Shown: in pieces, positions 3,021-15,486 of the stretch
How positions within the stretch are numbered: the first letter of the stretch is position 1
How the letters are laid out: the number at the start of each line of letters is the position of its first letter
Assembly (NCBI GenBank): GCA_041172365.1
Contig: JBEDKD010000203.1
Span: 1 to 24,000, forward strand
DNA from: Cyanobacteriota bacterium
GTDB taxonomy: Bacteria > Cyanobacteriota > Cyanobacteriia > Cyanobacteriales > Microcoleaceae
Length of the DNA: 24,000 bases
Reading direction: 5' to 3'
The notes under the pieces: model-generated
The model's database searches: none
Seen by the model: only the letters and a program-made list of their open reading frames with translations
Told to the model about the DNA's origin: nothing
Translations under genes and position numbers: made by a program

Positions 3021-4385
3021 ATGTCGGTAGTCTCAGTATTCGCGTCGATCGCAGTCTTAGCTATTCTTATTGTTGTTCACGAATTGGGGCACTTTCTCGC
3101 GGCACGTTGGCAAAATATCCACGTTAACCGTTTTTCCATCGGATTTGGCCCCATTCTTTGGAAATATCAAGGACCAGAAACAGAATACGCGATCCGAGGT
3201 TTTCCCCTGGGAGGTTTTGTCGGTTTTCCTGATGATGATCCTGATAGTAATATTCCTCCAAATGATCCCAATTTACTCCGTAATCGTCCGATTTTTGATC
3301 GGGCGATCGTCATTAGTGCAGGGGTGATCGCGAATTTAATTTTTGCCTATCTTCTGCTGGTATTTCAAATCGGTTTACTGGGAGTGCAAGAATTAGCACC
3401 CGGAGTATCTATTTCCCAAGTTAGTCCTCAAATTACTGTCGCGACTAAGGCGGGAATTAAACCAGGCGATCTGGTTTTAGCTGTCAATGGTGAAACTTTG
3501 GGTACTGAAACCGCCGCGGTGAAATCATTACAGGAATATATCCAAAAGCGCCCTAATCAATCGGTTCAATTATTAATTAAACGTGATAATGGTGCAACGT
3601 TAACCATTAGTGTTACTCCCGAAAAATCTAGTGATGGTAAGGGACGAATAGGGGTTCAATTAGCCCCGAATAGTGGAAAACCGGGTGTTTTAATGAATCC
3701 TGTCCCTGAAGTGATGCTCGCGTCTGATGCGGGGCTAAAACCGGGTGATGTTGTCTTAGCTGTTAATGGTGAAAAATTAGGAAAAATCCCAGGGGGCATG
3801 ACGGCTTTTATGGATTTTTTCTCAAGTCATCCGAATGAAAAAGTTTCTCTGTTAATTCAACAAGGAAGTGAAGAAAAGACGATTGAAGTCACGCCAACAA
3901 CTGCTGAAAGTCAAGGGTTTATTGCTCTGAGATTAGCGCCTAATGTCATCAGAAACAAAGCGCAAAATATCGGAGATGCCTTTAATAAGGGTGCGACGGA
4001 ATTTCAAAATATTTTCGTGAATACCTGGAAAGGATTTGGCAAATTAATCACCAATTTTCAACAAACCGCGGATCAATTATCTGGTCCTGTTGCTATTGTC
4101 GCCATTGGTGCGGATATTGCCAAATCTGATGGGGCGGCTCTTTTTCAATTTGCGGCAATTATTAGCATTAACCTGGCAATTATTAACATTTTACCTCTTC
4201 CGGCCCTTGATGGAGGTCAATTGGTATTTCTCTTAATTGAAGGATTATTAGGAAAACCATTACCCAATCGTATTCAGGAAGGTGTTATGCAGACGGGGTT
4301 AATCTTATTACTGGGGTTGGGTATTATCTTGATTGTTCGAGATACTGCCCATTTAGAATGGGTGCAAAAGTTGTTTCAACAATAA
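3021..4385 (+). CDS. rseP: RIP metalloprotease RseP / site-2 protease (peptidase M50) with two PDZ-like segments
   Basis: HELGH zinc motif in the first TM helix (VVHELGHFLAA). C-terminal LPLPALDGG motif. There are two internally similar PDZ-like stretches (GIKPGDLVLAVNGETLG and GLKPGDVVLAVNGEKLG). N- and C-termini are hydrophobic. Confidence 0.9.
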   Translation: MSVVSVFASIAVLAILIVVHELGHFLAARWQNIHVNRFSIGFGPILWKYQGPETEYAIRGFPLGGFVGFPDDDPDSNIPPNDPNLLRNRPIFDRAIVISAGVIANLIFAYLLLVFQIGLLGVQELAPGVSISQVSPQITVATKAGIKPGDLVLAVNGETLGTETAAVKSLQEYIQKRPNQSVQLLIKRDNGATLTISVTPEKSSDGKGRIGVQLAPNSGKPGVLMNPVPEVMLASDAGLKPGDVVLAVNGEKLGKIPGGMTAFMDFFSSHPNEKVSLLIQQGSEEKTIEVTPTTAESQGFIALRLAPNVIRNKAQNIGDAFNKGATEFQNIFVNTWKGFGKLITNFQQTADQLSGPVAIVAIGADIAKSDGAALFQFAAIISINLAIINILPLPALDGGQLVFLLIEGLLGKPLPNRIQEGVMQTGLILLLGLGIILIVRDTAHLEWVQKLFQQ

Positions 4386-4544
4386 TTAGAAAATAGGATA
4401 TGGGGCATTATATCATATCAGTACATTTTTTGTCAATAGCTAAAGAAAATAATGCCTTATATCCTATACCTTTAGGCCCCCATTAGTCTCTAAGGAGTTA
4501 AGTTTATCATGATATTTTAACAATTATAAAGTAATATTTCATTT

Positions 4545-4872
4545 GCTTGTGTTGCTCATCGGTGTAGGGAATAATGAAAGATAAGGGGAAACAGGAACTA
4601 AAGCTTGTGTCACCCCGCCATAACGCCACGGACTTACTGAAACCATAGACAATTTGGGACAATCCATGAAGTCTAAGTAAATCCAGGCTCTGGATCAGAC
4701 CACCGTTATCGGGAAGCGTTAAAGTTCCTACCTTGGGATGCTTGCCAGTTCCAAGCCCTAGAACTAAACAGTTAAACAAGCAAGGGTTTATTTAAAGCTA
4801 GTGCTGTTTGGATAGTACCGACTGATAACTTAGCCGAGGCACACATTACTGAAAAGGTCAGACACAACCATG
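4545..4872 (+). ncRNA. Putative IscB omega-RNA (HEARO-type structured RNA) immediately upstream of, and abutting, the iscB start codon. Boundaries are approximate.
   Basis: The 484-bp gap between rseP and iscB has no plausible + strand ORF. Verified local stems: ATCCAG-GCT-CTGGAT (4681-4695) and GTTCCTACCTTGG...CCAAGCCCTAGAAC (4724-4736 pairing with 4751-4764). The strings GCCACGGACTTACTGAAA and GGGAAGCGTTAAAGTTCCTACC resemble my recollection of published IscB omega-RNA scaffolds. The position, 5' of an IscB ORF on the same strand, is where omega-RNAs are encoded. Confidence 0.55.
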
Positions 4873-6144
4873 TCTAACTATGTTTTTGTTCTTGATACCC
4901 TCAAAAAACCTTTAACTCCCTGTAAGCCATCAATAGCACGAAAGTTGTTAAATGCTGGCAAGGCGGCTGTGTTTCGATGGTATCCATTTACCATCATTTT
5001 AAAAAAGGAGGTTGATGCCAATCCCGAACCACTCGAACTGAAACTAGATCCCGGTTCTAAAGTGACAGGAATTGCACTAAAAAAAGGCAACAAAATTATT
5101 TTTGGTGCCGAGTTGATTCATCAAGGACACGCGATTAAATCTCGTCTTGATTCCCGTCGTGCTATTCGACGTTCTCGACGAAATAGAAAAACTCGGTATC
5201 GTCCAGCTAGATTTCTTAATCGCACTCGTTCAAAGGGCTCCTTAGCTCCCTCCCTACAACATCGAGTAGAAACGACTATGACTTGGGTGAATCGCCTTCG
5301 GAAATTAGCACCGCTCGGTTCTATTTCTCAAGAATTAGTCAGATTTGATCTAAAACAGATGGAAAACCCAGAAATCTCAGGGATTGAATATCAACAAGGG
5401 GAATTACAAGGTTACGAGATTCGAGAATATCTACTTAATAAATGGGAGAGAAAATGTGCTTATTGTCGGGCAGAAAATGTGCCGTTACAAGTGGAACATA
5501 TTGAACCCAAAGCTAAAGGTGGAACTAATCGCATCTCCAATCTTTGTCTTTCTTGTGAGAAGTGTAACCAGAAAAAGGGGACTCAAGATATTAAGCAATT
5601 CTTAGCTGAAAAGCCAGAGATTCTTCACGGGATTTTATCTCAAGCTAAAAGACCTCTTAAGGATGCGGCGGCGGTTAATTCAACTCGATGGGCTTTGTTT
5701 AATCGACTCCAAGAAACAGGTTTACCTGTCTCAACGGGTTCTGGTGGATTAACTAAATTTAATCGAGTGCGATTAAATTTACCCAAATCACATTGGTTAG
5801 ATGCCGCGTGCGTGGGAAAAGTTGATTCTTTAGAGATTCTGACAACTCAACCGTTACGCATCACCGCGAAAGGATGGGGTTGTCGCCAAATGGTTCAAAA
5901 TGACAAATACGGTTTTCCTCGAAAGAATTATCGGGCAAAACAAAAAGTGAAAGAATGGAAAACGGGTGATATCGTTTCTGTCATCAGAGGAAAATGGGCA
6001 CCAATAACAGGAAAACGTATCAAAACGGTTCGATTTCAGGGTAATTTTGATGTCCGATTAGATAGCTCAACAGTAATCAGTGTATCTCGAAATCACATCA
6101 AGGCTATTCATCGCCAAGATGGATACGATTATACCTTTGTCTGA
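4870..6144 (+). CDS. iscB: IscB-type RNA-guided nuclease (OMEGA system effector; RRXRR/HNH protein), 424 aa
   Basis: Domain order by eye: PLMP-type N-terminus (KPLTPC aa 13-18); RuvC-I LKLDPGSKVTGIAL (D60, nt 5047-5049); Arg-rich bridge helix RLDSRRAIRRSRRNRKTRYRPARF; RuvC-II ISQELVRFD (E155, nt 5332-5334); HNH insert CAYC...VEHIEPKAKGG...NLCLSCEKCNQKKG (nt 5455-5577); RuvC-III SHWLDAACVG (H308 nt 5791-5793, D311 nt 5800-5802); and a C-terminal tail of about 95 aa. Confidence 0.85.
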   Translation: MSNYVFVLDTLKKPLTPCKPSIARKLLNAGKAAVFRWYPFTIILKKEVDANPEPLELKLDPGSKVTGIALKKGNKIIFGAELIHQGHAIKSRLDSRRAIRRSRRNRKTRYRPARFLNRTRSKGSLAPSLQHRVETTMTWVNRLRKLAPLGSISQELVRFDLKQMENPEISGIEYQQGELQGYEIREYLLNKWERKCAYCRAENVPLQVEHIEPKAKGGTNRISNLCLSCEKCNQKKGTQDIKQFLAEKPEILHGILSQAKRPLKDAAAVNSTRWALFNRLQETGLPVSTGSGGLTKFNRVRLNLPKSHWLDAACVGKVDSLEILTTQPLRITAKGWGCRQMVQNDKYGFPRKNYRAKQKVKEWKTGDIVSVIRGKWAPITGKRIKTVRFQGNFDVRLDSSTVISVSRNHIKAIHRQDGYDYTFV

Positions 6145-6460
6145 TTTTGTCCTTATTTGTCTAGCAAAAATGATGGAGGATAAACCGATGTATAATAGTC
6201 GAACCCCTGGACTCTCGAATACACAACAGAAGTATCTGAGAGAGCTAAACTTAGTTTCTCAACGTAATTGTCAGTTACGTGCCCGCGTTTCCCCTGAAGA
6301 AGCTTTGGTGAATGCTGAGTTAGAAGATTTATCTAATTTGTTAGCTTCTTTGGAGAGTTTTTCAGGAAAATAGACTAGGTTAGTAAATATCATTTACTCC
6401 TATTGGTACGCGGAACTCTTATGGCCAAGAGTTTAGATTTATACTGCCCATCTACAAGTA

Positions 6461-6501
6461 GAAACCCAATTTTATATCAAAATTGGGTTTCATCTTATTT
6501 T
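6461..6501 (+). terminator. Intrinsic-terminator-like hairpin downstream of iscB (alternatively an IS right-end structure)
   Basis: Perfect 13-bp stem GAAACCCAATTTT / AAAATTGGGTTTC (6461-6473 and 6479-6491) with a 5-nt loop, followed by the T-rich ATCTTATTTT. Confidence 0.5.
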
Positions 6502-6558
6502 AAGTTTCGTCTTTATTTGTTTGAGGAGATGAAAACAGCACCAATGGTTTTAATATAA

Positions 6559-7356
<798 letters not shown>

Positions 7357-7524: not shown

Positions 7525-7774
7525 ATTTTATTTCTTTAGGGAAAGAATAACCAAGAGACGTGCATCATTAATAAATAACAATAAGTCGTTATTTATCGCA
7601 TCCCATTAACAGCTACGATCAAAAAAATACCGCGTGGCTGCACATCCGGGTAAATCGGGTGGATAGGCTCAATAGACATCTCCAAAAACTACTGTAGGGT
7701 AGCATTAGCCTGCTTTTTACCTTATTTTTAGGAGATGTCTATTATGATTTAAGTATCACATAAATTTGATGTAT

Positions 7775-8137
7775 TTATTCAGTCCAAGCACTAAGAAACT
7801 CTATTTGATTTTGCATTTCTTCCGCTGACTTGACAGAAATTATATTCAAAAGGCGACGCATTTGTTCTCCCAGAGAATAATTTTGCTGTCCTAAAATAAT
7901 TCCTGCATGAGAGTCACCTTTTTCTAGCCAATTGGTATGGATTCTATAAAAATCCCTAGTGTTGAAACTATAAATTACCCTTTGATTCGCACAAGCCCAA
8001 ATCAGTTGATCCTCATCACTCCGAGATAACATCCCTGTTTCGGCAACTGTAATGGTATCTACACCACGACTTTGTAAAGCTTGTAATAGTTTTTTGCTGC
8101 GGGAATCTTCATCTAAGTAAAGACGAATTTGGCTCAT
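7775..8137 (-). CDS. DUF5615-family PIN-like (Mut7-C-like) putative toxin
   Basis: IRLYLDEDS...DEDQLIWACANQRVIYSFNTRDF...HAGIIL matches the DUF5615 pattern as I recall it. It has a 4-nt ATGA overlap with the upstream DUF433 gene. Confidence 0.75.
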   Translation of the reverse strand: MSQIRLYLDEDSRSKKLLQALQSRGVDTITVAETGMLSRSDEDQLIWACANQRVIYSFNTRDFYRIHTNWLEKGDSHAGIILGQQNYSLGEQMRRLLNIISVKSAEEMQNQIEFLSAWTE

Positions 8138-8433
8138 ACTGTCCCCTGATTTTTTCGCTGATTTAATGCTGCCAAACGCTCATATTCCGCTTTTTCGGCC
8201 GCTAAATCTGCTTCGATTTCCGCTCGATTTGCGTGATAATAAGTCAGCGCAGCATAAACTTGCGCTAAGGTGAGATGATCCAAATCCGCGGCTATTTCTT
8301 CAGCATTATTGCCTTGTTTGTATAAGGCGGCAATTCGCTGCACTGATGTAGCTGTATCTGCAATGATAGGGATGCCACCGCGAAGGTGTGGATTGCGGAT
8401 AATTAAAGTGCCAATATCAGTTAAAGTTGGCAT
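8134..8433 (-). CDS. DUF433-family putative antitoxin
   Basis: IIRNPHLRGGIPIIADTATSVQRIAALYKQGNNAEEIAADLDHLTLAQVYAALTYY matches the DUF433 consensus as I recall it. It is translationally coupled to the DUF5615 gene. Confidence 0.75.
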   Translation of the reverse strand: MPTLTDIGTLIIRNPHLRGGIPIIADTATSVQRIAALYKQGNNAEEIAADLDHLTLAQVYAALTYYHANRAEIEADLAAEKAEYERLAALNQRKNQGTV

Positions 8434-8480
8434 GGATTAATCAGGGGTTAAATGTTAGAATTTAATTTTAGCACATAACC

Positions 8481-9436
8481 AAAGAAACCGGGTTTTTACC
8501 TATAAATTTGGGTGAAAGAGCCCCTACAGAAGCACTCCATTCCTAGCTAAAAATGAGATCAATTTTTCCACATTATCCTTGTAGGGGCGCGATCGCCAAT
8601 ATCTTCGCCACCAAACAGATAGGCCAGAAAACCCGCCCCATCCCATTATATAGAAATTAATTTAACCGCAGATGAACGCAGATGAACACAGATGTTTGGC
8701 CTTATGTGGGTAGGAATGGGACTCGTTTATATCATTATGTCGGTGGGGTTGGGGCGGGTTTATTGAGGTTATTTGTGAGATTGATAAATTTGGGTGAAAG
8801 AGCCCCTACGTTTAACCGTTTTGAGATTAGCACGTATGATCAAAGAAACCGGGTTTTTACCTAATCTAATGGTGATAACGAAGTATTTAGTAAAAAACCC
8901 GGTTTCTGAACCCACATTATCCTTGTAGGGGCGCGATCGCCAATATCTTCGCCACCAAACAGATAGGCCAGAAAACCCGCCCCATCCCCACCGACATAAT
9001 GATATAAACGCGCGCCATTCCTACCGAAAAATTCCCAATTCATTCCATTTAATCCTTGGGTTGGGGCGGGTTTATTGAGGTTATTTGTGAGATTGATAAA
9101 TTTGGGTGAACCCGCCCCTACAGAAGCGCTCCATTCCTACCTAGAAATGAGATCAATTTTTCCACATTATCCTTGTAGGGGCCGTATCGCCAATATCTTC
9201 GCCACCAAACAGATAAGCCAGAAAACCCGCCCCATCCCATTATATAGAAATTAATTTAACCGCAGATGAACGCAGATGAACACAGATGTTTGGCCTTATG
9301 TGGGTAGGAATGAGACTCGTTTATATTATTCTGTCGGTGGGGTTGGGGCGGGTTTATTGAGGTTATTTGTGAGATTGATAAATTTGGGTGAAAGAGCCCC
9401 TACGTTTAACCGTTTTGAGATTAGCACGTATGATCA
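8481..9436. repeat. Nest of MITE-like small dispersed repeats, including a 341-bp direct duplication (8502-8842 and 9096-9436, offset 594 bp) and an inverted partial copy at about 8905-9043
   Basis: Direct reading: ATAAATTTGGGTGAA...GTATGATCA occurs at both positions with only a few substitutions. Modules such as GGGGCGGGTTT-N45-GCCCCTAC, AAAGAAACCGGGTTTTTACC and CGCAGATGAAC x2 are shuffled in both orientations. Confidence 0.85.
8842..8909. repeat. 68-bp hairpin element of the AAAGAAACCGGGTTTTT...AAAAACCCGGTTTCTGA family
   Basis: Terminal inverted repeats are 8842-8858 and 8892-8909. A second full copy at 12395-12463 has a related loop sequence. Half-sites occur at 8481-8500 and 11196-11215. 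Confidence 0.8.
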
Positions 9437-9443
9437 TTATCAT

Positions 9444-9605
9444 CTATTCCTCCGTTGATTCAGTAGTTTTTCCCTGACGTAAAAGCCATTTAGCCCCTTG
9501 GGATTTAGGAACAATTGCAATAATTTCTACAAAGTTATCCAGAATGTCATAGAAAATGCGAATTTCATCAACCCCTAGGCAATGCCGCGACAGATATGAG
9601 ACGTT
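9444..9605 (-). pseudogene. Remnant of a RelE/ParE-type toxin gene (C-terminal part only, no start codon)
   Basis: The minus-strand frame reads ...GVDEIRIFYDILDNFVEIIAIVPKSQGAKWLLRQGKTTESTEE*. This resembles the C-terminal RVGDYRIIYDV...V..I.HR block of RelE/ParE toxins. Upstream, the frame is closed by a stop and has no Met. Confidence 0.4.
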
Positions 9606-9887
9606 TTAGGTGTTCTAAAGATTTGGTGGTAAACTCTATTTGATATGGCCTATCTAAGCTATATGTTTTAACAGGATTGGGGCGTTACGCTTCGCGAACG
9701 CACCCGACATTTCTGCAAGTTCTGAAAATCAACAACTGTTGGATAAAATTGCTAATTTGGAGGAAGATAACCGAAAATTAGAGGCAACACTTGATCAAAT
9801 CCTTCCGTACCTACAACAGCCGAAATAAGGGTTCATTGGGGAAGGAAAAAAAGTTTCCCTTCCTCTGCCATCAAGGGTTCTCACTGA

Positions 9888-11102
9888 TTAACAACTGGGA
9901 GTCTCATCACGAATTTGTTGCAAAATTTGATATAAATTTTTAGCATGAATCCATCCCACATAACCCGCAAAACGACAAATTCCTAAAGGATCAGTTACAA
10001 AGACATGATCAACCCCTGCTAAGTTTTTCCAAACATTAATTTGGATGTTATTTTCTAAGAAAATATAGGGAGTAGAAGAGGGAAAATCTTGAGTGTTAGC
10101 ACGGGTCATCCCTGGAATAGTTTGTAAGCGATTAATAATCTTTAAGAGTTCTTTTTCACTGGTATCAGGGCGTGGTTGAGGTGATGATTGAGGTGATGAT
10201 TGAGGTGATGATTGAGGTGATGGTTGAGGTGATTGACTACCAAGATCCTGCAAAACTTCAGTAGCAGATTGATAACGTTTGTTAATAGCAGGTTGTATCA
10301 TTTTGTCTAAAATCTCACCCAGTTCTGAACTGACAGATTGTTGTAAGTATTCTCGCCACACCCATTCAAACTCGCTTGGATCGAATAAATCAAACGGTTC
10401 AACCTCAGTTAACAGATACAGACAAGTGACACCCAGACTATAAATATCACTAGGATAAATGGCTTTGCCGTTGACTTGTTCCGGTGCGGCATATCCAGCA
10501 CTTCCGATCATTGTTCCCGTTACCGCTAAAGCTGTTTGAGTCGCATATTTCGCCGCACCAAAGTCAACTAAAACCAGTTGCCCATTTTGCCTTTGAATAA
10601 TATTCTCTGGCTTGATATCTCGGTGAATGACTTGGTTTGAGTGAATAAACTCTAATACAGGGAGTAAATTTTTAAGTAAATTGCGAATCTGCGCCTCGCT
10701 AAAATATCCCTGAGATTCGAGGACTTTGGCTAAATTTTCACCGTCGATGAATTGTTGGACTAAATATTGCTGTCCATCTTGACTAAAATAGGCTAATAAG
10801 TCAGGAATTTGAGGATGTTTTCCTAACTGTTCTAAGCGTACTGCTTCACGCTCAAATAACTCAGTGGCTTTCTGGATACTAGAAGTCCCTTGAGCTTGGG
10901 GATAGAATTGTTTAATAACACAGGGAGGTTTTGAGGGTTTATACTCGTCAACCGCCTCAAAAGTGCGCCCAAAGCCCCCTTGGCCAAGAATTTTTCCGGC
11001 TCGGTAGCGATCGCCCAATAGCAGTTTATTCCCACACTTCTGACAGAAATTAGTACCGGATGGGTTTGGCAATAGACAATCAGGGTTTAGACACTGGCTC
11101 AT
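9888..11102 (-). CDS. Ser/Thr protein kinase with an N-terminal 4-Cys zinc ribbon, an SPQS-repeat linker and an uncharacterised C-terminal domain of about 100 aa
   Basis: CLNPDC...CQKCG prefix; GQGGFGRTF glycine loop; VIK lysine; HRDIKPENI; DFGAAK; GYAAPEQ. Confidence 0.9.
   Translation of the reverse strand: MSQCLNPDCLLPNPSGTNFCQKCGNKLLLGDRYRAGKILGQGGFGRTFEAVDEYKPSKPPCVIKQFYPQAQGTSSIQKATELFEREAVRLEQLGKHPQIPDLLAYFSQDGQQYLVQQFIDGENLAKVLESQGYFSEAQIRNLLKNLLPVLEFIHSNQVIHRDIKPENIIQRQNGQLVLVDFGAAKYATQTALAVTGTMIGSAGYAAPEQVNGKAIYPSDIYSLGVTCLYLLTEVEPFDLFDPSEFEWVWREYLQQSVSSELGEILDKMIQPAINKRYQSATEVLQDLGSQSPQPSPQSSPQSSPQSSPQPRPDTSEKELLKIINRLQTIPGMTRANTQDFPSSTPYIFLENNIQINVWKNLAGVDHVFVTDPLGICRFAGYVGWIHAKNLYQILQQIRDETPSC
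10174..10235. repeat. 12-bp in-frame microsatellite (TTGAGGTGATGA, about 5 units) encoding the SPQS repeats of the kinase linker
   Basis: GGTTGAGGTGATGATTGAGGTGATGATTGAGGTGATGATTGAGGTGATGGTTGAGGTGATTG read directly. The protein reads SPQPSPQSSPQSSPQSSPQP. Confidence 0.9.
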
Positions 11103-11316
11103 AAACTGTTGATCAATGTTTTCTTTGGGGAATTATAGCAAATATATAAGAATCATTAGCCTTAAAACTAAGCTGTTACACGGGATATGACTGACATCAA
11201 GAAACCGGGTTTCTGTTAAGATGCGGGTTTCGGGTGTCCACAGCATGGTTGGTTTCTTTTTTTCTGTCTCGTTTATTGATTTTAACCCGGAGCATCTCAA
11301 AGAAGCAAAAAAAACT

Positions 11317-11398
11317 GTAGTGGGTTGGCGTAGCCTGTGGGGAGCATCGGACGTCTCGCTTTGTATTAGAACCCTAGGGAGCGAGACGCTCCCACTAC
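11317..11398. repeat. MITE-like element of about 80 bp with GTAGTGGG...CCCACTAC termini. A second, inverted copy lies at 23026-23100.
   Basis: The reverse complement of 23026-23100 aligns by eye with 11317-11398 (GTAGTGGGTTGGCGTAGCCTGTG.GGAGCATCGGAC.TCTCGCT...GGGAGCGAGACG.TCCCACT). It has an internal stem GTCTCGCT / AGCGAGAC. Confidence 0.75.
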
Positions 11399-11472
11399 CA
11401 ATTTACCAACATGAGCCCGATCGCGCTTTTGATTCCATAAACCCGATCGCGCTCTCATTAAACTTTCCCCAT

Positions 11473-11967
11473 CTATCCCAAAGTCAAGACACCCGCGTTA
11501 AAATTGACAGTTAACGGAAAGAGTTTCAACCATTGCAAACCCAAAATCGGCTCAGGAATACCCGCACCTACCAACACAGGAATCATATACTCCTCTCCAT
11601 CCAATACAACCGTTCCCTGATAGATATAGCAACCGCCAGGGTAGTTAAGTCGTGGGGTGGGGGCGGGTTTTTATAATTTGTCTTTGGGGTTCAAAGATGA
11701 GGGTGAACCCGCCCCTACAAAATCTGTCCTAATAGCCTTGGCAGTTGCTATATCAAAAAAGTCAAGCCCCCGTGCTGTCTGCATCGTTTCATTTCGTTGA
11801 ATTACACACCAACCTAAACTTTCAGCATCTTGAGTATCAAGGGCTAACCACCCAGTTGTAAACCCCGTATCTAATAACACTTCAATGGGAAATCTTTCGC
11901 GATCAGCCGCAATTAAATCTATTTCAAAAAAGAGTTCCCCAATCTCGCCAAACTTGCCATTTATCAT
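11473..11967 (-). pseudogene. Retropepsin-like (clan AA) aspartic protease gene interrupted by a 67-bp dispersed repeat that supplies an in-frame TAA
   Basis: The N-terminal part (11671-11967) carries the active-site block VLLDTGFTTG. After the repeat, the same frame continues (11473-11652) as RLNYPGGCYIYQGTVVLDGEEYMIPVLVGAGIPEPILGLQWLKLFPLTVNFNAGVLTLG*, a typical C-terminal half of this family. Both parts share phase (11671 and 11473 are both 1 mod 3). Confidence 0.65.
11652..11718. repeat. 67-bp dispersed repeat (GGGGCGGGTTT...GGGTGAACCCGCCCCTAC family) inserted in the protease gene
   Basis: GTGGGGTGGGGGCGGGTTTTTATAATTTGTCTTTGGGGTTCAAAGATGAGGGTGAACCCGCCCCTAC. It has the same architecture as the units at about 8745-8810 and 9056-9120. 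GGGGCGGGTT can pair with AACCCGCCCC. Confidence 0.75.
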
Positions 11968-12299
11968 ATCAAACCACAGGCTCCTGTTTCATTGAGCCGG
12001 AAAGTAACCAGCCAGCCACTAGGGTATTTTTGACGAGCTTTAAGTGCCGCAACTTCTTCATCGGGATCGATAAAATAATCCCCACTATTGGGCTCAATAA
12101 TAATAAACCAGTTATAGTGGTCATCTATCAATTGGGGGCGCACTTGTTCAAAAATTCCTTGGCTACGCTGACAACGCTCATCTCGTTCGGCTTTGCGTCT
12201 TGCTAACTCCTCTGGTGCTATGGTAAATTCAGGAAATAACCTACCTCGACCGCGATCGCGTCTTGATGTTGTTTGAGTCATAACAGCTTTCCTCTTCAA
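11964..12299 (-). CDS. Hypothetical protein (111 aa), upstream partner of the retropepsin-like gene
   Basis: Clean ORF with a 4-nt ATGA overlap onto the protease start at 11967. I recognise no domain. Confidence 0.6.
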   Translation of the reverse strand: MKRKAVMTQTTSRRDRGRGRLFPEFTIAPEELARRKAERDERCQRSQGIFEQVRPQLIDDHYNWFIIIEPNSGDYFIDPDEEVAALKARQKYPSGWLVTFRLNETGACGLI

Positions 12300-12394
12300 C
12301 TATATCCAAATCTATCCTAAATCTTCACAAAAAACGCGATCGTCTGTCCAGTCAGAGCTTATTATTTAGCTCTTTCATCCATCTCGCGGCGACC

Positions 12395-12463
12395 AAAGAA
12401 ACCGGGTTTTTTACCTCCTCGCGGACGGCAACGAAATATTTTCCTCAAAAACCCGGTTTCTGA
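12395..12463. repeat. Second full copy of the 68-bp AAAGAAACCGGGTTTTT / AAAAACCCGGTTTCTGA hairpin element
   Basis: The arms are 12395-12412 and 12447-12463. The loop ACCTCCTCGCGGACGGCAACGAAATATTTTCCTC is related to the loop of the 8842-8909 copy. Confidence 0.8.
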
Positions 12464-12601
12464 CTTATCTGGGTTCATCTGCGTCGATCGCGCTTTCAAA
12501 AAAGAGAAAAAACCTCATTCTTTACAAATCTTTACCAAAAAAACGCGCCTTTTTTTTCCAACCCCTTGACAAATCCTTGATATTGACGGATGATATATAA
12601 C

Positions 12602-12648
12602 ATAATGGGATGGTGGCAATTTTTTTATTTTTGCCACCATCCCATTAT
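12602..12648. other. Perfect 18-bp-stem hairpin (ATAATGGGATGGTGGCAA / TTGCCACCATCCCATTAT) with a T-rich loop
   Basis: Read directly: arms at 12602-12619 and 12631-12648. It lies in the intergenic region downstream of the hydrolase gene (minus strand). Confidence 0.7.
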
Positions 12649-12754
12649 ACTAAAAATCCTTATCTAATTATCCTTAATCATACCACACCTCGATTTTTTA
12701 GCGCGCCGCGTGAATGTAAATTTTTGTAACAAACCAGACCGCGAAGGGAAAACA

Positions 12755-13639
12755 CTATAAAACAGAAGACTCTCGCAGAAACATCACTAACTCTCGATTC
12801 ACAGTTTGAGGGACTTCCTGTTGAATCCAATGGCCACAATGGGGAATGAATTTTAATTCAAAAGGTGCAGAAACTAATTTATCTAAACCTTCCGTTAAAT
12901 GTTGACTTAAAAAATCATCTTCCTGGCCCCATAATACCAAAGTAGGAGAAGTAATCAATGGAGTTTTCGCACCCCAATTCAATAACCAATTCGGATTTAA
13001 TAATTGTCGATAATAATTAATCGCGGCACCTAAGACACCGGGTTTATCTAAAGCCTCTTGATAAATACGAGTTTCTTCGGCACTAAAAGCACCTTTGCGA
13101 ACCGCGTGCCCCTGCATTACATTTTTGACAAAATCCTTGAGATTATTTTGGATTAACCATTCAGGAATACCTGGTACTTGAAACGCGAAGACAAACCAAC
13201 TTCGTCGCAGTTGATCTAAATTACTTACTAATTCTTGAACAAATTTCTGTGGTGGCGCGGCATTTAAAATCGCTAAACGGTTTAAAGATTGGGGGAATTT
13301 TTGTGCTAAGTGCCACGCGATCGTGCCCCCCCAGTCATGTCCGACAATATGAGCCGTTTTATAGCCAAAACGTTCAATCAAACCACGAATATCAGCGCTG
13401 AGGGTATCCAAATCATAACCACTTTCGGGTTTATCAGAATCATTATAGCCCCTCAGATCAGGGACAACCACCTTAAAATGACGCGCTAAAACCGGAATTT
13501 GATAGCGCCAAGAATACCAAAACTCAGGAAATCCATGCAGCAAAACAACCAGATCACCTTCCCCTTGACTGACACAGTGCAAACGGATGTTATTGGTTTC
13601 GATAAAATCATGTTTCCATTGAGACTCTAAATGCGTCAT
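12755..13639 (-). CDS. Alpha/beta-fold hydrolase (epoxide hydrolase / haloalkane dehalogenase-like subfamily)
   Basis: HGFPEFWYSWRYQIP oxyanion-region motif, GHDWGG nucleophile elbow with Asp, and a C-terminal HCGHWIQQE histidine block. Confidence 0.85.
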   Translation of the reverse strand: MTHLESQWKHDFIETNNIRLHCVSQGEGDLVVLLHGFPEFWYSWRYQIPVLARHFKVVVPDLRGYNDSDKPESGYDLDTLSADIRGLIERFGYKTAHIVGHDWGGTIAWHLAQKFPQSLNRLAILNAAPPQKFVQELVSNLDQLRRSWFVFAFQVPGIPEWLIQNNLKDFVKNVMQGHAVRKGAFSAEETRIYQEALDKPGVLGAAINYYRQLLNPNWLLNWGAKTPLITSPTLVLWGQEDDFLSQHLTEGLDKLVSAPFELKFIPHCGHWIQQEVPQTVNRELVMFLRESSVL

Positions 13640-13800
13640 AGCTTCGCGCGATCCTCCTCTGTGGGAAGTGCCACTGCTTCTGCAACAGCAGCAGGATGGA
13701 ACTTCCGCTTTTTCGTCATCTGTTTCCAGATTAACATTTTACAGTTCCACTCCTGCCATTTCCGCGTGGGAGGTTTTTGCTGAACGCGTTTAAAGTCCAT
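13636..13800 (-). CDS. Possible small ORF (54 aa, basic) translationally coupled to the hydrolase gene
   Basis: ATG at 13800-13798. Reads MDFKRVQQKPPTRKWQEWNCKMLIWKQMTKKRKFHPAAVAEAVALPTEEDRAKL*. Its TGA overlaps the hydrolase ATG (CTATGA). It lies 20 nt after the stop of the upstream 111-aa gene. It is below the ORF-track size cut-off and I recognise no homology. Confidence 0.3.
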   Translation of the reverse strand: MDFKRVQQKPPTRKWQEWNCKMLIWKQMTKKRKFHPAAVAEAVALPTEEDRAKL

Positions 13801-13820
13801 AGGGCTTTATTTTCCCGTGA

Positions 13821-14156
13821 TTACGCGGCACTAACCGCGGCTTCCGCGGGTTGGACTTGGTACTTCACCAAATTGGCTAATTCTTGTAATTGGCTAATGG
13901 CTTCCGCACCTTCTAACTTCATTAATTCGCGATCGTCACGCATCTCGGTCCAAGTAATCCCGTAGTCGGATACCAGAAACCGGATCAGATGATTTTCCGC
14001 CAAGCTCACCATAAACGAGGCACTGTTTCTTTGGCCCCCGCAAGTATAGCAAGATGCCAAATAACCTCGATTCTCTAGCACGATCGCGAGAGCTTGTAGA
14101 TTCATCACCAAGTCTTGTACGAATTGACGATGCTCTTCTGCTAATCTGAGAAACAC
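13821..14156 (-). CDS. Conserved hypothetical protein (111 aa)
   Basis: GTG start preceded by AGGAGG-N6 (the reverse complement of 14157-14175 reads ATAGGAGGAAAAAAGTG). Same strand as, and just upstream of, the small ORF and the hydrolase. I could not assign a family. Confidence 0.6.
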   Translation of the reverse strand: MFLRLAEEHRQFVQDLVMNLQALAIVLENRGYLASCYTCGGQRNSASFMVSLAENHLIRFLVSDYGITWTEMRDDRELMKLEGAEAISQLQELANLVKYQVQPAEAAVSAA

Positions 14157-14540
14157 TTTTTTCCTCCTATCACCACAAAGTACATTTTATCCCAAATTTT
14201 ACAATTTCTTAAGAATTGGGAAATATGGGCGTAGGCTTACTATAACCCCAGTATGTGAGAAGATCATCGGATGAACGACTTCCCAAACCGATTGCCCTAC
14301 CTTAACTAATCCCTTCAGCGATTGACGTATCAACGACAACACTCTAGGGGATCACGCTCCGATAAGGTGTTTACCCATAAAACCCCTTTACTGTCAAGGG
14401 GAAAATTAAATTAATTTTAGCTTTGATACAAATATTTAATGAAAAAAATAAGTATTCCTTAACTATTGAAATGAAAAATAAAAACAAATAATAAAACAGA
14501 AGAGGGGTAATAGCATTTTAATGATAAAATGCCGGAACTG

Positions 14541-14584
14541 GGCGGGTTAACTTGTGATACCCGCCAGCGCGCGAGGAGGCGCGC
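14541..14584 (-). terminator. Two adjacent GC-rich hairpins downstream of the DUF2839 gene
   Basis: GGCGGGT-N11-ACCCGCC (14541-14565) and GCGCGC-GAGGAG-GCGCGC (14567-14584) sit directly after the stop at 14613. On the minus strand they are followed by GCATTTTATC. Confidence 0.35.
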
Positions 14585-14612
14585 ACCTCCAAAAGCAGCC
14601 ATCCCAAGCCAA

Positions 14613-14825
14613 TTAATTAACTTCCCACCAGCCCAGACTAGGGCCAATAAATCGAATGGTAATCCAAGAAGCAACGAGAAGGGCAATGCCGATCCAGCTT
14701 CCTTGTGTTGTCCATTTCATAAACTGTTCGCTTTGGCTTTTGGTAAGGGGAAGCCAAGGGAGGATCGGCTCTTCTTTACCGTATTTTTCGCCCAGTGTTT
14801 CTTTTCGTCGTTTGGAATCGCCCAT
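14613..14825 (-). CDS. DUF2839-family small membrane protein (70 aa)
   Basis: MGDSKRRKETLGEKYGKE...LPLTKSQSEQFMKWTTQGSWIGIALLVASWITIRFIGPSLGWW matches my recollection of the cyanobacterial DUF2839 consensus. The overlapping + strand ORFs are Arg/Pro-rich with low complexity. Confidence 0.7.
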   Translation of the reverse strand: MGDSKRRKETLGEKYGKEEPILPWLPLTKSQSEQFMKWTTQGSWIGIALLVASWITIRFIGPSLGWWEVN

Positions 14826-14898
14826 AGCTTTTTTGTCACAAGGTTATTGAACTTTACCCTATCATACAGGAGACTATTTGTGAAGGACAAAAAGTATA

Positions 14899-15147
14899 AT
14901 GCTGGACAAATCTGAGCGAGTTAAAGCCAATACCGTGATTTTAGGTGGAGGGTTAGGATTAATCCTCTTAGGTGGATGTTTTATGATAGGTGTTATGTTG
15001 ACTGTGCTTTTTGTTAATGGTGACTGTCTCCAGATAGAGAGAAAAGTGGAAATTTTCAGGAGTGTGCTTTATTTTCTGGGTTTCCTTTGCTTTGGCGGTG
15101 CATTTATCTTAATTGTTACGGCAATACGCGCTCTGATCACCATTTAA
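14899..15147 (+). CDS. Hypothetical small membrane protein (82 aa, about 2-3 TM helices)
   Basis: An ORF with hydrophobic stretches (VILGGGLGLILLGGCFMIGVMLTVLFV and VLYFLGFLCFGGAFILIVTAI). I recognise no homology. Confidence 0.45.
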   Translation: MLDKSERVKANTVILGGGLGLILLGGCFMIGVMLTVLFVNGDCLQIERKVEIFRSVLYFLGFLCFGGAFILIVTAIRALITI

Positions 15148-15175
15148 AAAACAATCAAGACGCGATCGAGGAATG

Positions 15176-15362
15176 GAAATTAAATAACTTGACTAGGGGC
15201 TTAGTAGTTTTGCCCATAGTATCCCGAAAGCAGGCAAGATGCCTGTACTACTTTATTAATTTTTCCTTCCCCAGAAATTAAATAACTTGACAATGGGCTT
15301 AGTAGTTTTGCCCATAGTATCCCGAAAGCAGGCAAGATGCCTGCACTACTTTCTTTATTAAT
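15176..15362. repeat. Tandem duplication (offset 98 bp) of a unit of about 87 bp, each containing a GCAGGCA-AGA-TGCCTG(C/T) stem-loop followed by a T-rich tract
   Basis: GAAATTAAATAACTTGAC..GGGCTTAGTAGTTTTGCCCATAGTATCCCGAAAGCAGGCAAGATGCCTG.ACTACTTT occurs at 15176 and 15274. It lies between convergent genes. Confidence 0.85.
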
Positions 15363-15486
15363 CACCAGAGCAATAATTATAGACTTATTGCCCCACTAAA
15401 AACCAATATTCTTATTAATAAATACTCCCCCTTTATCTAGTTTTCTCGCCTCCCATATTTCCTCATTTTGACCTGAAATATAATGT

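Follow-up and report, generated by a model that had tools for sequence, protein, structure and literature searches.

An IscB-omegaRNA insertion element between rseP and fabG in a cyanobacterium, with a proposed homing mechanism

What kind of nuclease is encoded between rseP and fabG in a cyanobacterium of the Microcoleaceae, and how did its gene come to lie there? The question is raised by an open reading frame (ORF) of 424 amino acids (aa) at positions 4870-6144 (+) in the first 24,000 nucleotides (nt) of contig JBEDKD010000203.1 (GenBank assembly GCA_041172365.1); this whole stretch is referred to here as the window. An initial annotation, made from the sequence alone, placed the ORF correctly, described its product as a stand-alone IscB nuclease of the lineage ancestral to Cas9, and drew the inserted locus at 4386-6501. 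We conclude, with a probability of roughly 85%, that an insertion element of the IscB/OMEGA type, non-autonomous and 1545 bp long, occupies the locus, and we propose a homing mechanism for it. An insertion is indeed present, but the inserted element covers only 4632-6176 (+) of the interval first assigned to it.

Profile searches, one of the checks proposed in the initial annotation, placed the protein in the IscB family. The NCBIfam equivalog NF040563 (RNA-guided endonuclease IscB) matched aa 5-316 over a 314-position profile with 463.3 bits, against a cutoff of 175. The Pfam domains RRXRR (PF14239; 240 bits against 25, E = 1.5e-71, a full-length match over residues 5-177) and HNH (PF01844; 43 bits against 21.4) also scored above their cutoffs, and a Cas9d model reached only 38 bits against a cutoff of 375. 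The best sequence matches in the PDB were TbaIscB, HfmIscB and OgeuIscB-type chains (E = 1.6e-36 to 3.9e-23); with a profile of the 45-sequence family, the same chains improved to E = 1e-54 to 1e-35.

Further inspection of the primary structure revealed all of the motifs that had been listed for the ORF, each aligned to the matching position in solved IscBs. PLTP (P14-P17) aligns with the PLMP motif, D60 (RuvC-I) with the aspartate of IDPG, E155 (RuvC-II) with the glutamate of LELNRF, E209-H210 with the HH pair of the HNH motif and H308-x-x-D311 (RuvC-III) with HYLD. The arginine-rich bridge helix is RRAIRRSRRNRKTRYRPARF (96-115), and the HNH finger is formed by C196/C199, H210, N224 and C229/C232/N233. 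The catalytic positions thus are intact, as had been claimed, both in RuvC (D60, E155, H308 and D311) and in HNH (H210 and the zinc cysteines). Across the 45 homologues, D60, E155, H308, D311 and the zinc cysteines C196, C199, C229 and C232 are invariant, and H210, N224 and N233 are at least 90% conserved. The approximate domain order is a PLMP-like segment (residues 1-50), RuvC-I (D60), the bridge helix (86-120), RuvC-II (E155), HNH (180-245), RuvC-III (H308, D311) and a beta-rich C-terminal domain (317-424). A length of 424 aa leaves no room for a REC lobe.

An AlphaFold (AF2) model of the protein (mean pLDDT of 73.9) was compared with the PDB using Foldseek; this comparison was a fold search, not a residue-level superposition. 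The top matches were complexes of IscB with omegaRNA and target DNA (8csz, E = 6.9e-22; 9liq, E = 1.4e-19; 9k30, 9nvu, 7xht and 7utn). They were followed by IsrB (8dmb, TMt of 0.74) and then by Cas9d/Cas9, with Cas9 proteins appearing only at E values above 1e-9. The alternative outcome, an HNH domain with no RuvC fold around it, was not what these searches returned, and we therefore conclude from the alignments and the modeled fold that the ORF product is an IscB, a member of an RNA-guided nuclease family.

HEARO RNAs were reported in 2010, and the activity of IscB/OMEGA systems was reported in 2021. A scan of the window with Rfam gave a single match above the gathering score, to HEARO (RF02033), at 4677-4849 (+), with 86.5 bits against 83 (E = 1.7e-16). 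The match ends 20 nt before the iscB ATG on the same strand, in keeping with the prediction that the nuclease has its own RNA upstream. HEARO is the omegaRNA of IscB (Goltsman et al. 2022, PMC9755519; Meers et al. 2023), and HEARO ORFs and IscB are members of one family (Goltsman et al. 2022, PMC9755519). HEARO also was found upstream of iscB in 11 of the 14 related loci scanned. NF040563, the fold and the HEARO match support the earlier assignment to an OMEGA effector with its own RNA rather than to a CRISPR system. No TnpA/Y1 transposase (PF01797), cas1/cas2 or CRISPR array was found in the 24-kb window, as had been noted; none of its three tandem repeats is CRISPR-like, and no other ORF in it carries a Cas domain. 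The protein resembles type II Cas9, including Cas9d, in having a RuvC domain split by an HNH insertion and an arginine-rich bridge helix, and these proteins are the next-best fold matches; unlike type II CRISPR-Cas9, the system has no REC lobe, cas1/cas2, CRISPR array or tracrRNA.

The omegaRNA scaffold was placed at 4632-4849 (+), a length of approximately 218 nt, from the RF02033 match and from sister copies of the element, which align to the model from the element's first base. In two such copies that are 94-95% identical to the window (comparison loci L003 and L004), RF02033 aligns from that base, with GACUUAC pairing with GUAAGUC, and scores 87.6 and 88.3 bits over 219-221 nt. The scaffold begins at 4632, which is both the end of the element, as defined by empty sites and seven copies (see below), and the first base of the P1 stem in the L003 alignment. 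The subfamily carries a divergent P1, ACUUAC...GUAAGU, which lacks the inner CCCCGCUCUAAAGAGACGGGG-type hairpin of the canonical stem. In the window, the variant reads ACUUAC...GUAAAU (approximately 4632-4684), replacing the usual GUCA...UGAC stem with its internal hairpin. A G-to-A change in the window copy breaks one P1 pair (a C-A mismatch), and the RF02033 alignment deletes P1 here; the other differences between copies preserve helices (G-C to G-U, and C-G/G-U to U-G/A-U). A minimum-free-energy fold of 4616-4869 gave a z-score of -0.8, which is uninformative for a pseudoknotted RNA, and the covariance model therefore was relied upon. The sequence between the RNA match and the iscB start (4850-4869, +) is a spacer. 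A terminator-like scan on the opposite strand picked out a 7-bp hairpin (GUCAGAC...GUCUAAC) at 4857-4878, across the iscB start codon. This hairpin may serve in translational control or may be the 3' part of the omegaRNA that is absent from the Rfam model; further 3' omegaRNA structure is not covered by RF02033 (Meers et al. 2023).

The rseP-fabG interval was compared among related genomes, as the initial annotation had proposed, and both empty sites and the ends of the element were found (loci designated L are cyanobacterial comparison loci). Among contigs whose RseP is 96-98% identical to that of the window, L081 and L085 are occupied and L082, L083, L084 and L086 are empty, the last four having the order rseP, a 61-aa ORF and fabG. 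The empty allele is ...GCCACGGAGGATAAACCGATG (the empty sites read ...GCCATAACGCCACGGAGGATAAACCGATG), and the occupied window allele is ...GCCATAACGCCACGG[ACTTAC ... ATGATGG]AGGATAAACCGATG, its left flank ending in GCCACGG. Occupied and empty alleles differ by exactly 1545 bp, with no target duplication. BLAST breakpoints versus L082 and L086 fell at 4632 and 6175. The exact register is ambiguous by up to 3 nt (+/-2 nt for the coordinates given here), since GGA recurs at the two junctions (4630-4632 and 6175-6177). Since the best register is 4632-6176, and since both stretches also occur at the empty sites, 4386-4631 and 6177-6582 are host DNA.

In other cyanobacterial assemblies, copies with 92-95% DNA identity are found in unrelated surroundings. 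They resemble the window from ACTTACTGAAACC (4632) up to ...AAAAATGATGG, after which comes AG; the element ends are ACTTACTGAAACC... and ...TTTGTCTAGNAAAAATGATGG. The same ends were found at seven independent insertion sites (the window, L094, L003, L089, L087, L004/L088 and L090-93), and the right boundary is based on these seven copies together with the empty sites. The 3' tail of the element (6145-6176, +) ends ...CTAGCAAAAATGATGG and lies on what is the left-end (LE) side in canonical IS200/IS605 terms. The dinucleotide AG (6177-6178, +; CT on the other strand) follows the element at all seven sites and is present in the empty site as well, and the positions beyond it vary. It lies 3' of the protospacer in the orientation of iscB and, given its recurrence at seven of seven sites and in the empty site, is a candidate core of the target-adjacent motif (TAM). 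When metagenome contigs were scanned with the first 23 nt of the element, two further loci (L087 and L088) were recovered, too few for a motif logo. In 0.95 Mb of comparison loci, we found no solo ends and no elements sharing these ends other than the IscB copies.

In IscB systems, the end of the transposon marks the limit of the omegaRNA scaffold, and the flank next to it, which lies outside the transposon and 5' of the scaffold, serves as the guide (Meers et al. 2023). The host DNA directly 5' of the scaffold in the window, CGCCATAACGCCACGG (4616-4631, +), is the predicted guide segment; its length of 16 nt was adopted from published IscB systems. Of the 16 positions of this segment, 15 agree with the empty allele of L082 and 14 with that of L086, and AGGATAA comes next in those alleles. 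The predicted target in the empty site is AGCCATAACGCCACGG, followed by AGGATAA.

The element was compared with its flanks among the occupied contigs. Among the window, L085 and L081, identity is 99.0-99.9% in the element, 93.4-95.1% on the rseP side and 92.2-96.0% on the fabG side. Synonymous divergence (dS) among the three is 0.003-0.009 for iscB, compared with 0.17-0.20 for rseP and 0.16-0.25 for fabG, so that the iscB value is 20 to 60 times below those of both flanking housekeeping genes. The flanks of occupied L081 are most similar to those of empty L082 (dS of 0.06-0.09), which argues that the element reached this site in hosts that had already diverged and was not inherited with it. 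As a control, the copy beside the phosphoenolpyruvate carboxylase gene, which is present in two of these lineages, differs by 0.26%, and its flanks differ by 0.5-1.3%; copy and flanks thus diverge to about the same degree, as expected for vertical descent. Judged from these alignments, spread into the rseP-fabG site seems to have been recent, horizontal and between diverged strains, and the dS pattern fits the same-site spread that homing would give. 'Non-restorative' homing of OMEGA elements has been described as plausible and awaiting validation (2026 review, PMC13565253).

We propose the following mechanism. Transcription probably enters from the side of the co-oriented rseP gene; in IscB elements, the guide lies beyond the scaffold and the transposon end, so that transcription must come from outside (Meers et al. 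2023). The transcript would carry, in order, approximately 16 nt of host flank as guide (4616-4631), the scaffold of approximately 218 nt (4632-4849) and the iscB mRNA. IscB (424 aa) would bind the scaffold, and the complex would recognize DNA that matches the guide and is followed by a motif beginning with AG, the putative TAM; this is the unoccupied rseP-fabG site. Both strands would be cut, the target strand by HNH and the other strand by RuvC. Repair from a copy carrying the element would reinstall it, and the nuclease would act as a homing device. Movement to new sites would need a transposase supplied in trans. It has been reported that IscB cleaves the joint left after excision (the donor joint), that IscB elements are preferentially co-oriented with the upstream gene and that approximately 1.5% of iscB genes are near tnpA (Meers et al. 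2023). The window fits each of these points: rseP is co-oriented, no sigma-70-like promoter was seen on the + strand immediately 5' of the element and there is no Y1 transposase in the 24 kb.

Several observations weigh against this reading. RNA-guided, TAM-dependent cleavage of double-stranded DNA by the window IscB is an activity that we infer. The HEARO score is barely over its threshold (86.5 versus 83 bits), which is explained by the divergent P1 of the subfamily and the C-A mismatch of the window copy. At 2 nt, the conserved flank motif falls short of the length of published IscB TAMs. A search of the + strand immediately upstream of the element gave no sigma-70-like promoter, and expression of the guide therefore is assumed to occur by read-through. 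The subterminal hairpins found at both ends of typical relatives are missing here, so that a Y1 TnpA is no more than a possible means of mobilization. The protein itself contributes two further points. The initial annotation had identified a tail of about 95 aa as the position of the TAM-interacting domain, whereas the region beyond detectable homology is approximately 108 aa (317-424), profile-to-PDB homology ending at approximately residues 316-348. In sequence, these 108 aa do not detectably resemble the TAM-interacting domains of solved IscBs. An isolated model of 317-424 (pLDDT of 72) gave no fold match below an E value of 0.04; its best matches were nonsignificant SH3/KOW-like barrels, with IsrB (8dmb) second (E = 0.065) and TbaIscB at E = 0.24. 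The domain, which is beta-rich and conserved within the family, is by its position a candidate TAM-interacting domain. Finally, ordinary homologous recombination without a nuclease could yield spread into the same site.

This last point leads to the most serious alternative, which we regard as possible though clearly the less probable account: a genuine IscB-omegaRNA element that spread by ordinary homologous recombination (transformation or a gene-specific sweep) or by repeated transposition, without RNA-guided cleavage. The tract of near identity hardly passes the element, the first left mismatch between the window and L085 lying 20 nt from the junction, so that on the left there is no long co-conversion tract pointing to break repair; the right flank is uninformative, because 88 nt are conserved there in all alleles, empty ones included. 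Yet in two separate comparisons the imported tract stops within tens of nucleotides of both element borders, for which passive recombination offers no reason, and independent transposition to the identical nucleotide in three lineages is very unlikely when the sole conserved feature of the target is AG. An intact nuclease under purifying selection also argues against spread by recombination only. For the specific proposal of natural 'non-restorative' OMEGA homing into lineages approximately 5% diverged (dS of approximately 0.2) with RNA-guided cleavage as the driving force, combined with remodeled ends that perhaps reflect a different transposase or a reliance mostly on homing, we hold only a tentative view, well short of even odds.

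It is improbable that the element is a decaying or domesticated relic whose IscB no longer cuts and which persists by drift or through a host function, such as RNA-guided repression. The window has no transposase, its omegaRNA carries the P1 mismatch, the sister copy L004/L088 is a pseudogene with a premature stop at codon 72, and between the window and L081 the nonsynonymous divergence (dN) of iscB is about equal to dS, a comparison that involves 8 substitutions only. All of the catalytic and zinc-binding residues nevertheless are intact, and the dN/dS of 0.19-0.23 between independent iscB copies indicates that the gene is under purifying selection, as estimated from codon comparisons. The site is polymorphic, near-identical copies occur in diverged hosts, and the predicted guide is the flank of the current site, not a promoter elsewhere. 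The remaining suggestion, a stand-alone HNH/McrA-type endonuclease beside an unrelated structured RNA, comes from existing annotation and has next to no probability left. The initial annotation had expected generic pipelines to give only an HNH or RRXRR name, an expectation that is now dated: the exact protein is deposited as MEY3868145.1, 'hypothetical protein', and JGI calls it McrA, as it does many homologues ('5-methylcytosine-specific restriction endonuclease McrA'), whereas the current NCBI model names homologues of 68-70% identity 'RNA-guided endonuclease IscB'. The McrA or HNH-only reading is already refuted by the equivalog match over aa 5-316, by RuvC-I/II/III segments in which D60, E155, H308 and D311 align to solved IscBs, and by a fold search that gives IscB, IsrB and Cas9 rather than McrA; moreover, gene and RNA move together, as a unit whose ends are fixed.

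The IscB element of the window shares most of its features with characterized IscB-omegaRNA systems, namely OgeuIscB (PDB 7xht, 7utn and 8csz), GstIscB of Geobacillus stearothermophilus and the HEARO nucleases (Goltsman et al. 2022, PMC9755519). These include domain order, catalytic residues, the lack of a REC lobe, a HEARO omegaRNA directly upstream, a guide supplied by the flank, the absence of tnpA from the element and co-orientation with the upstream gene. It differs in that the protein is shorter than OgeuIscB (424 versus 496 aa), its C-terminal 108 aa are not detectably similar to the TAM-interacting domains of solved IscBs, the first stem of its RNA (ACUUAC...) replaces the GUCA... stem and inner hairpin of the usual HEARO, and it has AG for a flank motif instead of ATGAA, which is TTCAT, the GstIscB TAM, in reverse complement (Meers et al. 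2023).

Typical cyanobacterial relatives (L009 of Floridaenema, L014 of [Phormidium] sp. and L043 of Rivularia) have 54-68% protein identity to the window IscB and belong to the same protein and RNA family, with HEARO scores of 120-154 bits. Like the window element, they are chromosomal single-gene elements of filamentous cyanobacteria. Approximately 100 nt with two hairpins follow their iscB stop; one of the two is similar to a hairpin inside the omegaRNA P1, which is what the paired ends of an IS200/IS605 element would be expected to show, and these elements end ...CCCGGAGGTTTTTAG, followed by ATGAA. In the window subfamily, by contrast, both hairpins are lost, only 32 nt follow the stop, ATGAT lies inside the mobile unit and the flank motif is AG. 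Inspection of L009, L014, L043, L015, L053, L059 and others gave 60-110 nt after the stop and the same end, ...CCCGGAGGTTTTTAG, followed by ATGAA or ATGA; in approximately 12-15 of 44 loci, that ATG/GTG opens a long co-oriented host ORF. The typical element thus seems to place a ribosome-binding site before a host start codon that doubles as the target-adjacent motif. The Floridaenema element (L009, 8446-9530, -), whose IscB is 66% identical, also lies next to the 3' end of an rseP homologue in convergent orientation, which probably is a coincidence.

Membership in the IS200/IS605 family is likely by descent rather than on the evidence of the ends. The element resembles IS200/IS605 in its precise insertion, the absence of target duplication, a short conserved motif at one end and the existence of nuclease-only, non-autonomous copies (Meers et al. 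2023). Unlike IS200/IS605 elements, which move by peel-and-paste through a Y1 TnpA, it has no tnpA in the window and no convincing subterminal hairpins at either end. At the 3' (LE) end, inverted-repeat searches and DNA folding (z-score of -0.8) gave no convincing hairpin; the best inverted repeat (14-nt arms, 79% complementarity) falls within the ORF, and L003 shows no compensation for it. Of the 4- to 5-nt motif typical of the left end in IS200/IS605, only AG is invariant (7 of 7 sites). TTAC within ACTTAC was considered as an IS608-type external target and rejected, as ACTTAC lies inside the insertion and forms the 5' strand of P1. L085 carries a 252-aa gene with a Y1_Tnp domain approximately 3 kb downstream of the element (9292-10050), which stays below the cutoff of the REP-associated tyrosine transposase model (63.5 bits against 80); it has no counterpart in the window, and nothing tested ties it to the IscB element.

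The ends also were compared with those of IS607 elements, which are marked by a core dinucleotide (GG) that recurs at both termini and in the target, by short repeats near the ends and by a serine recombinase gene (Chen et al. 2018, PMC6188088). GG(A) is present at both window junctions and in the empty site, and the left junctions are GG at 2 of 7 sites and GA at 5 of 7. There are three occurrences of TTGTC(T/C) at the right end and two of GACAA at the left, a pattern that is statistically weak, and no resolvase (serine recombinase) gene was seen. No association between iscB and serine recombinases has been found (Meers et al. 2023). The locus was filed as an IscB/OMEGA element, since the IS607-like GG(A) is not consistently backed by the other six sites.

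At 6 of the 7 sites, a co-oriented host ORF begins within approximately 12 nt of the 3' junction of the element (regions compared: window, 6119-6190; L003, 7250-7330; L087, 8640-8720; L004, 7270-7350; L094, 1625-1700; L090, 5250-5330). The element ends in AGGA-like bases and ATG ATG, in a frame that is open from an ATG at 6119, with the result that gene callers run the iscB 3' end and the downstream gene together (84 versus 61 aa here). L003 has its host ATG 9 nt upstream of the junction, and there an in-frame start is restored by the element's ATG ATG. The notion that the terminal ATG ATG always serves as the downstream start codon was rejected; it fits 4 of 7 sites in frame, and the other 3, the window included, have their own start 10-12 nt downstream. 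In L089 (on the kaiA side), the 14 nt to the left of the element (GGAAAAACGATTAG; 3749-3762) are identical to the element's own last 14 nt (5295-5308), including positions at which the L089 copy differs from all others; the predicted guide of this copy therefore would match the right junction of the same copy, where AG comes next. The possibility that L089 holds a tandem or remnant copy upstream was rejected, as only 14 nt are shared.

Both genes that had been named as neighbors were confirmed by equivalogs: RseP (3021-4385; TIGR00054, 360 bits against a cutoff of 147.6), which is co-oriented with the iscB element, and FabG, a 3-oxoacyl-acyl carrier protein (ACP) reductase (6592-7356; TIGR01830, 331.7 bits against 297.75). 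The immediate downstream neighbor, however, is not fabG but a 61-aa host ORF (6188-6373, +), which is called as a 61-aa gene in all of the empty-site contigs and has no NCBIfam match. The element adjoins it 11 nt 5' of its ATG, inside its GGAGGA ribosome-binding site, and in occupied contigs gene callers lengthen it to 83-84 aa via an ATG within the 3' end of iscB. The 484 bp upstream of iscB (4386-4869) hold no convincing gene, as had been described. A minus-strand ORF of 90 aa (4507-4779) overlaps the omegaRNA and host intergenic DNA and was regarded as spurious, none of the tests made favoring it as a gene. A perfect sigma-70 consensus (TTGACA, 18 nt, TG-TATAAT; 12/12) lies in the intergenic DNA at 4407-4436 (-), points back to rseP and is also present in the empty-site alleles.

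Elsewhere in the window, tandem repeats occur at 2-279 (90 nt by 3.1 copies, 96% matches) and at 15176-15359 (98 nt by 1.9 copies), the latter upstream of the cyclase gene. The window RseP is 454 aa long with two PDZ domains; most cyanobacterial RseP homologues found, near-identical relatives excepted, are approximately 363 aa and match 44-56% of the query. A second variable region lies beside the IscB site: the approximately 7.9 kb between fabG and a response-regulator/adenylate cyclase gene (7559-15486) are absent from L081 and L082, in which these genes are adjacent. This region contains a DUF5615/DUF433 pair (7775-8433), a Ser/Thr kinase gene (9888-11102), an alpha/beta hydrolase gene, a DUF1815 gene and small ORFs.

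The IscB family, its RNA and its biological role are already published, and the locus is an ordinary member of this known family. OMEGA systems have been characterized as Cas9 ancestors and compact genome editors, and one more cyanobacterial IscB leaves that picture unchanged. The clean pair of occupied and empty alleles gives a predicted guide, target and flanking motif for a small, 424-aa IscB. The low dS of iscB is population-level evidence of apparent spread between strains into the same site, a behavior that awaits validation (PMC13565253). The altered ends of the subfamily indicate that a nuclease and its RNA can be kept while element boundaries and target motifs change. From these remodeled ends (hairpins lost, boundary shifted, an AG motif, and a ribosome-binding-site-like AGGA with ATG ATG), we infer that the subfamily may depend on a different transposase or may move mostly by homing.

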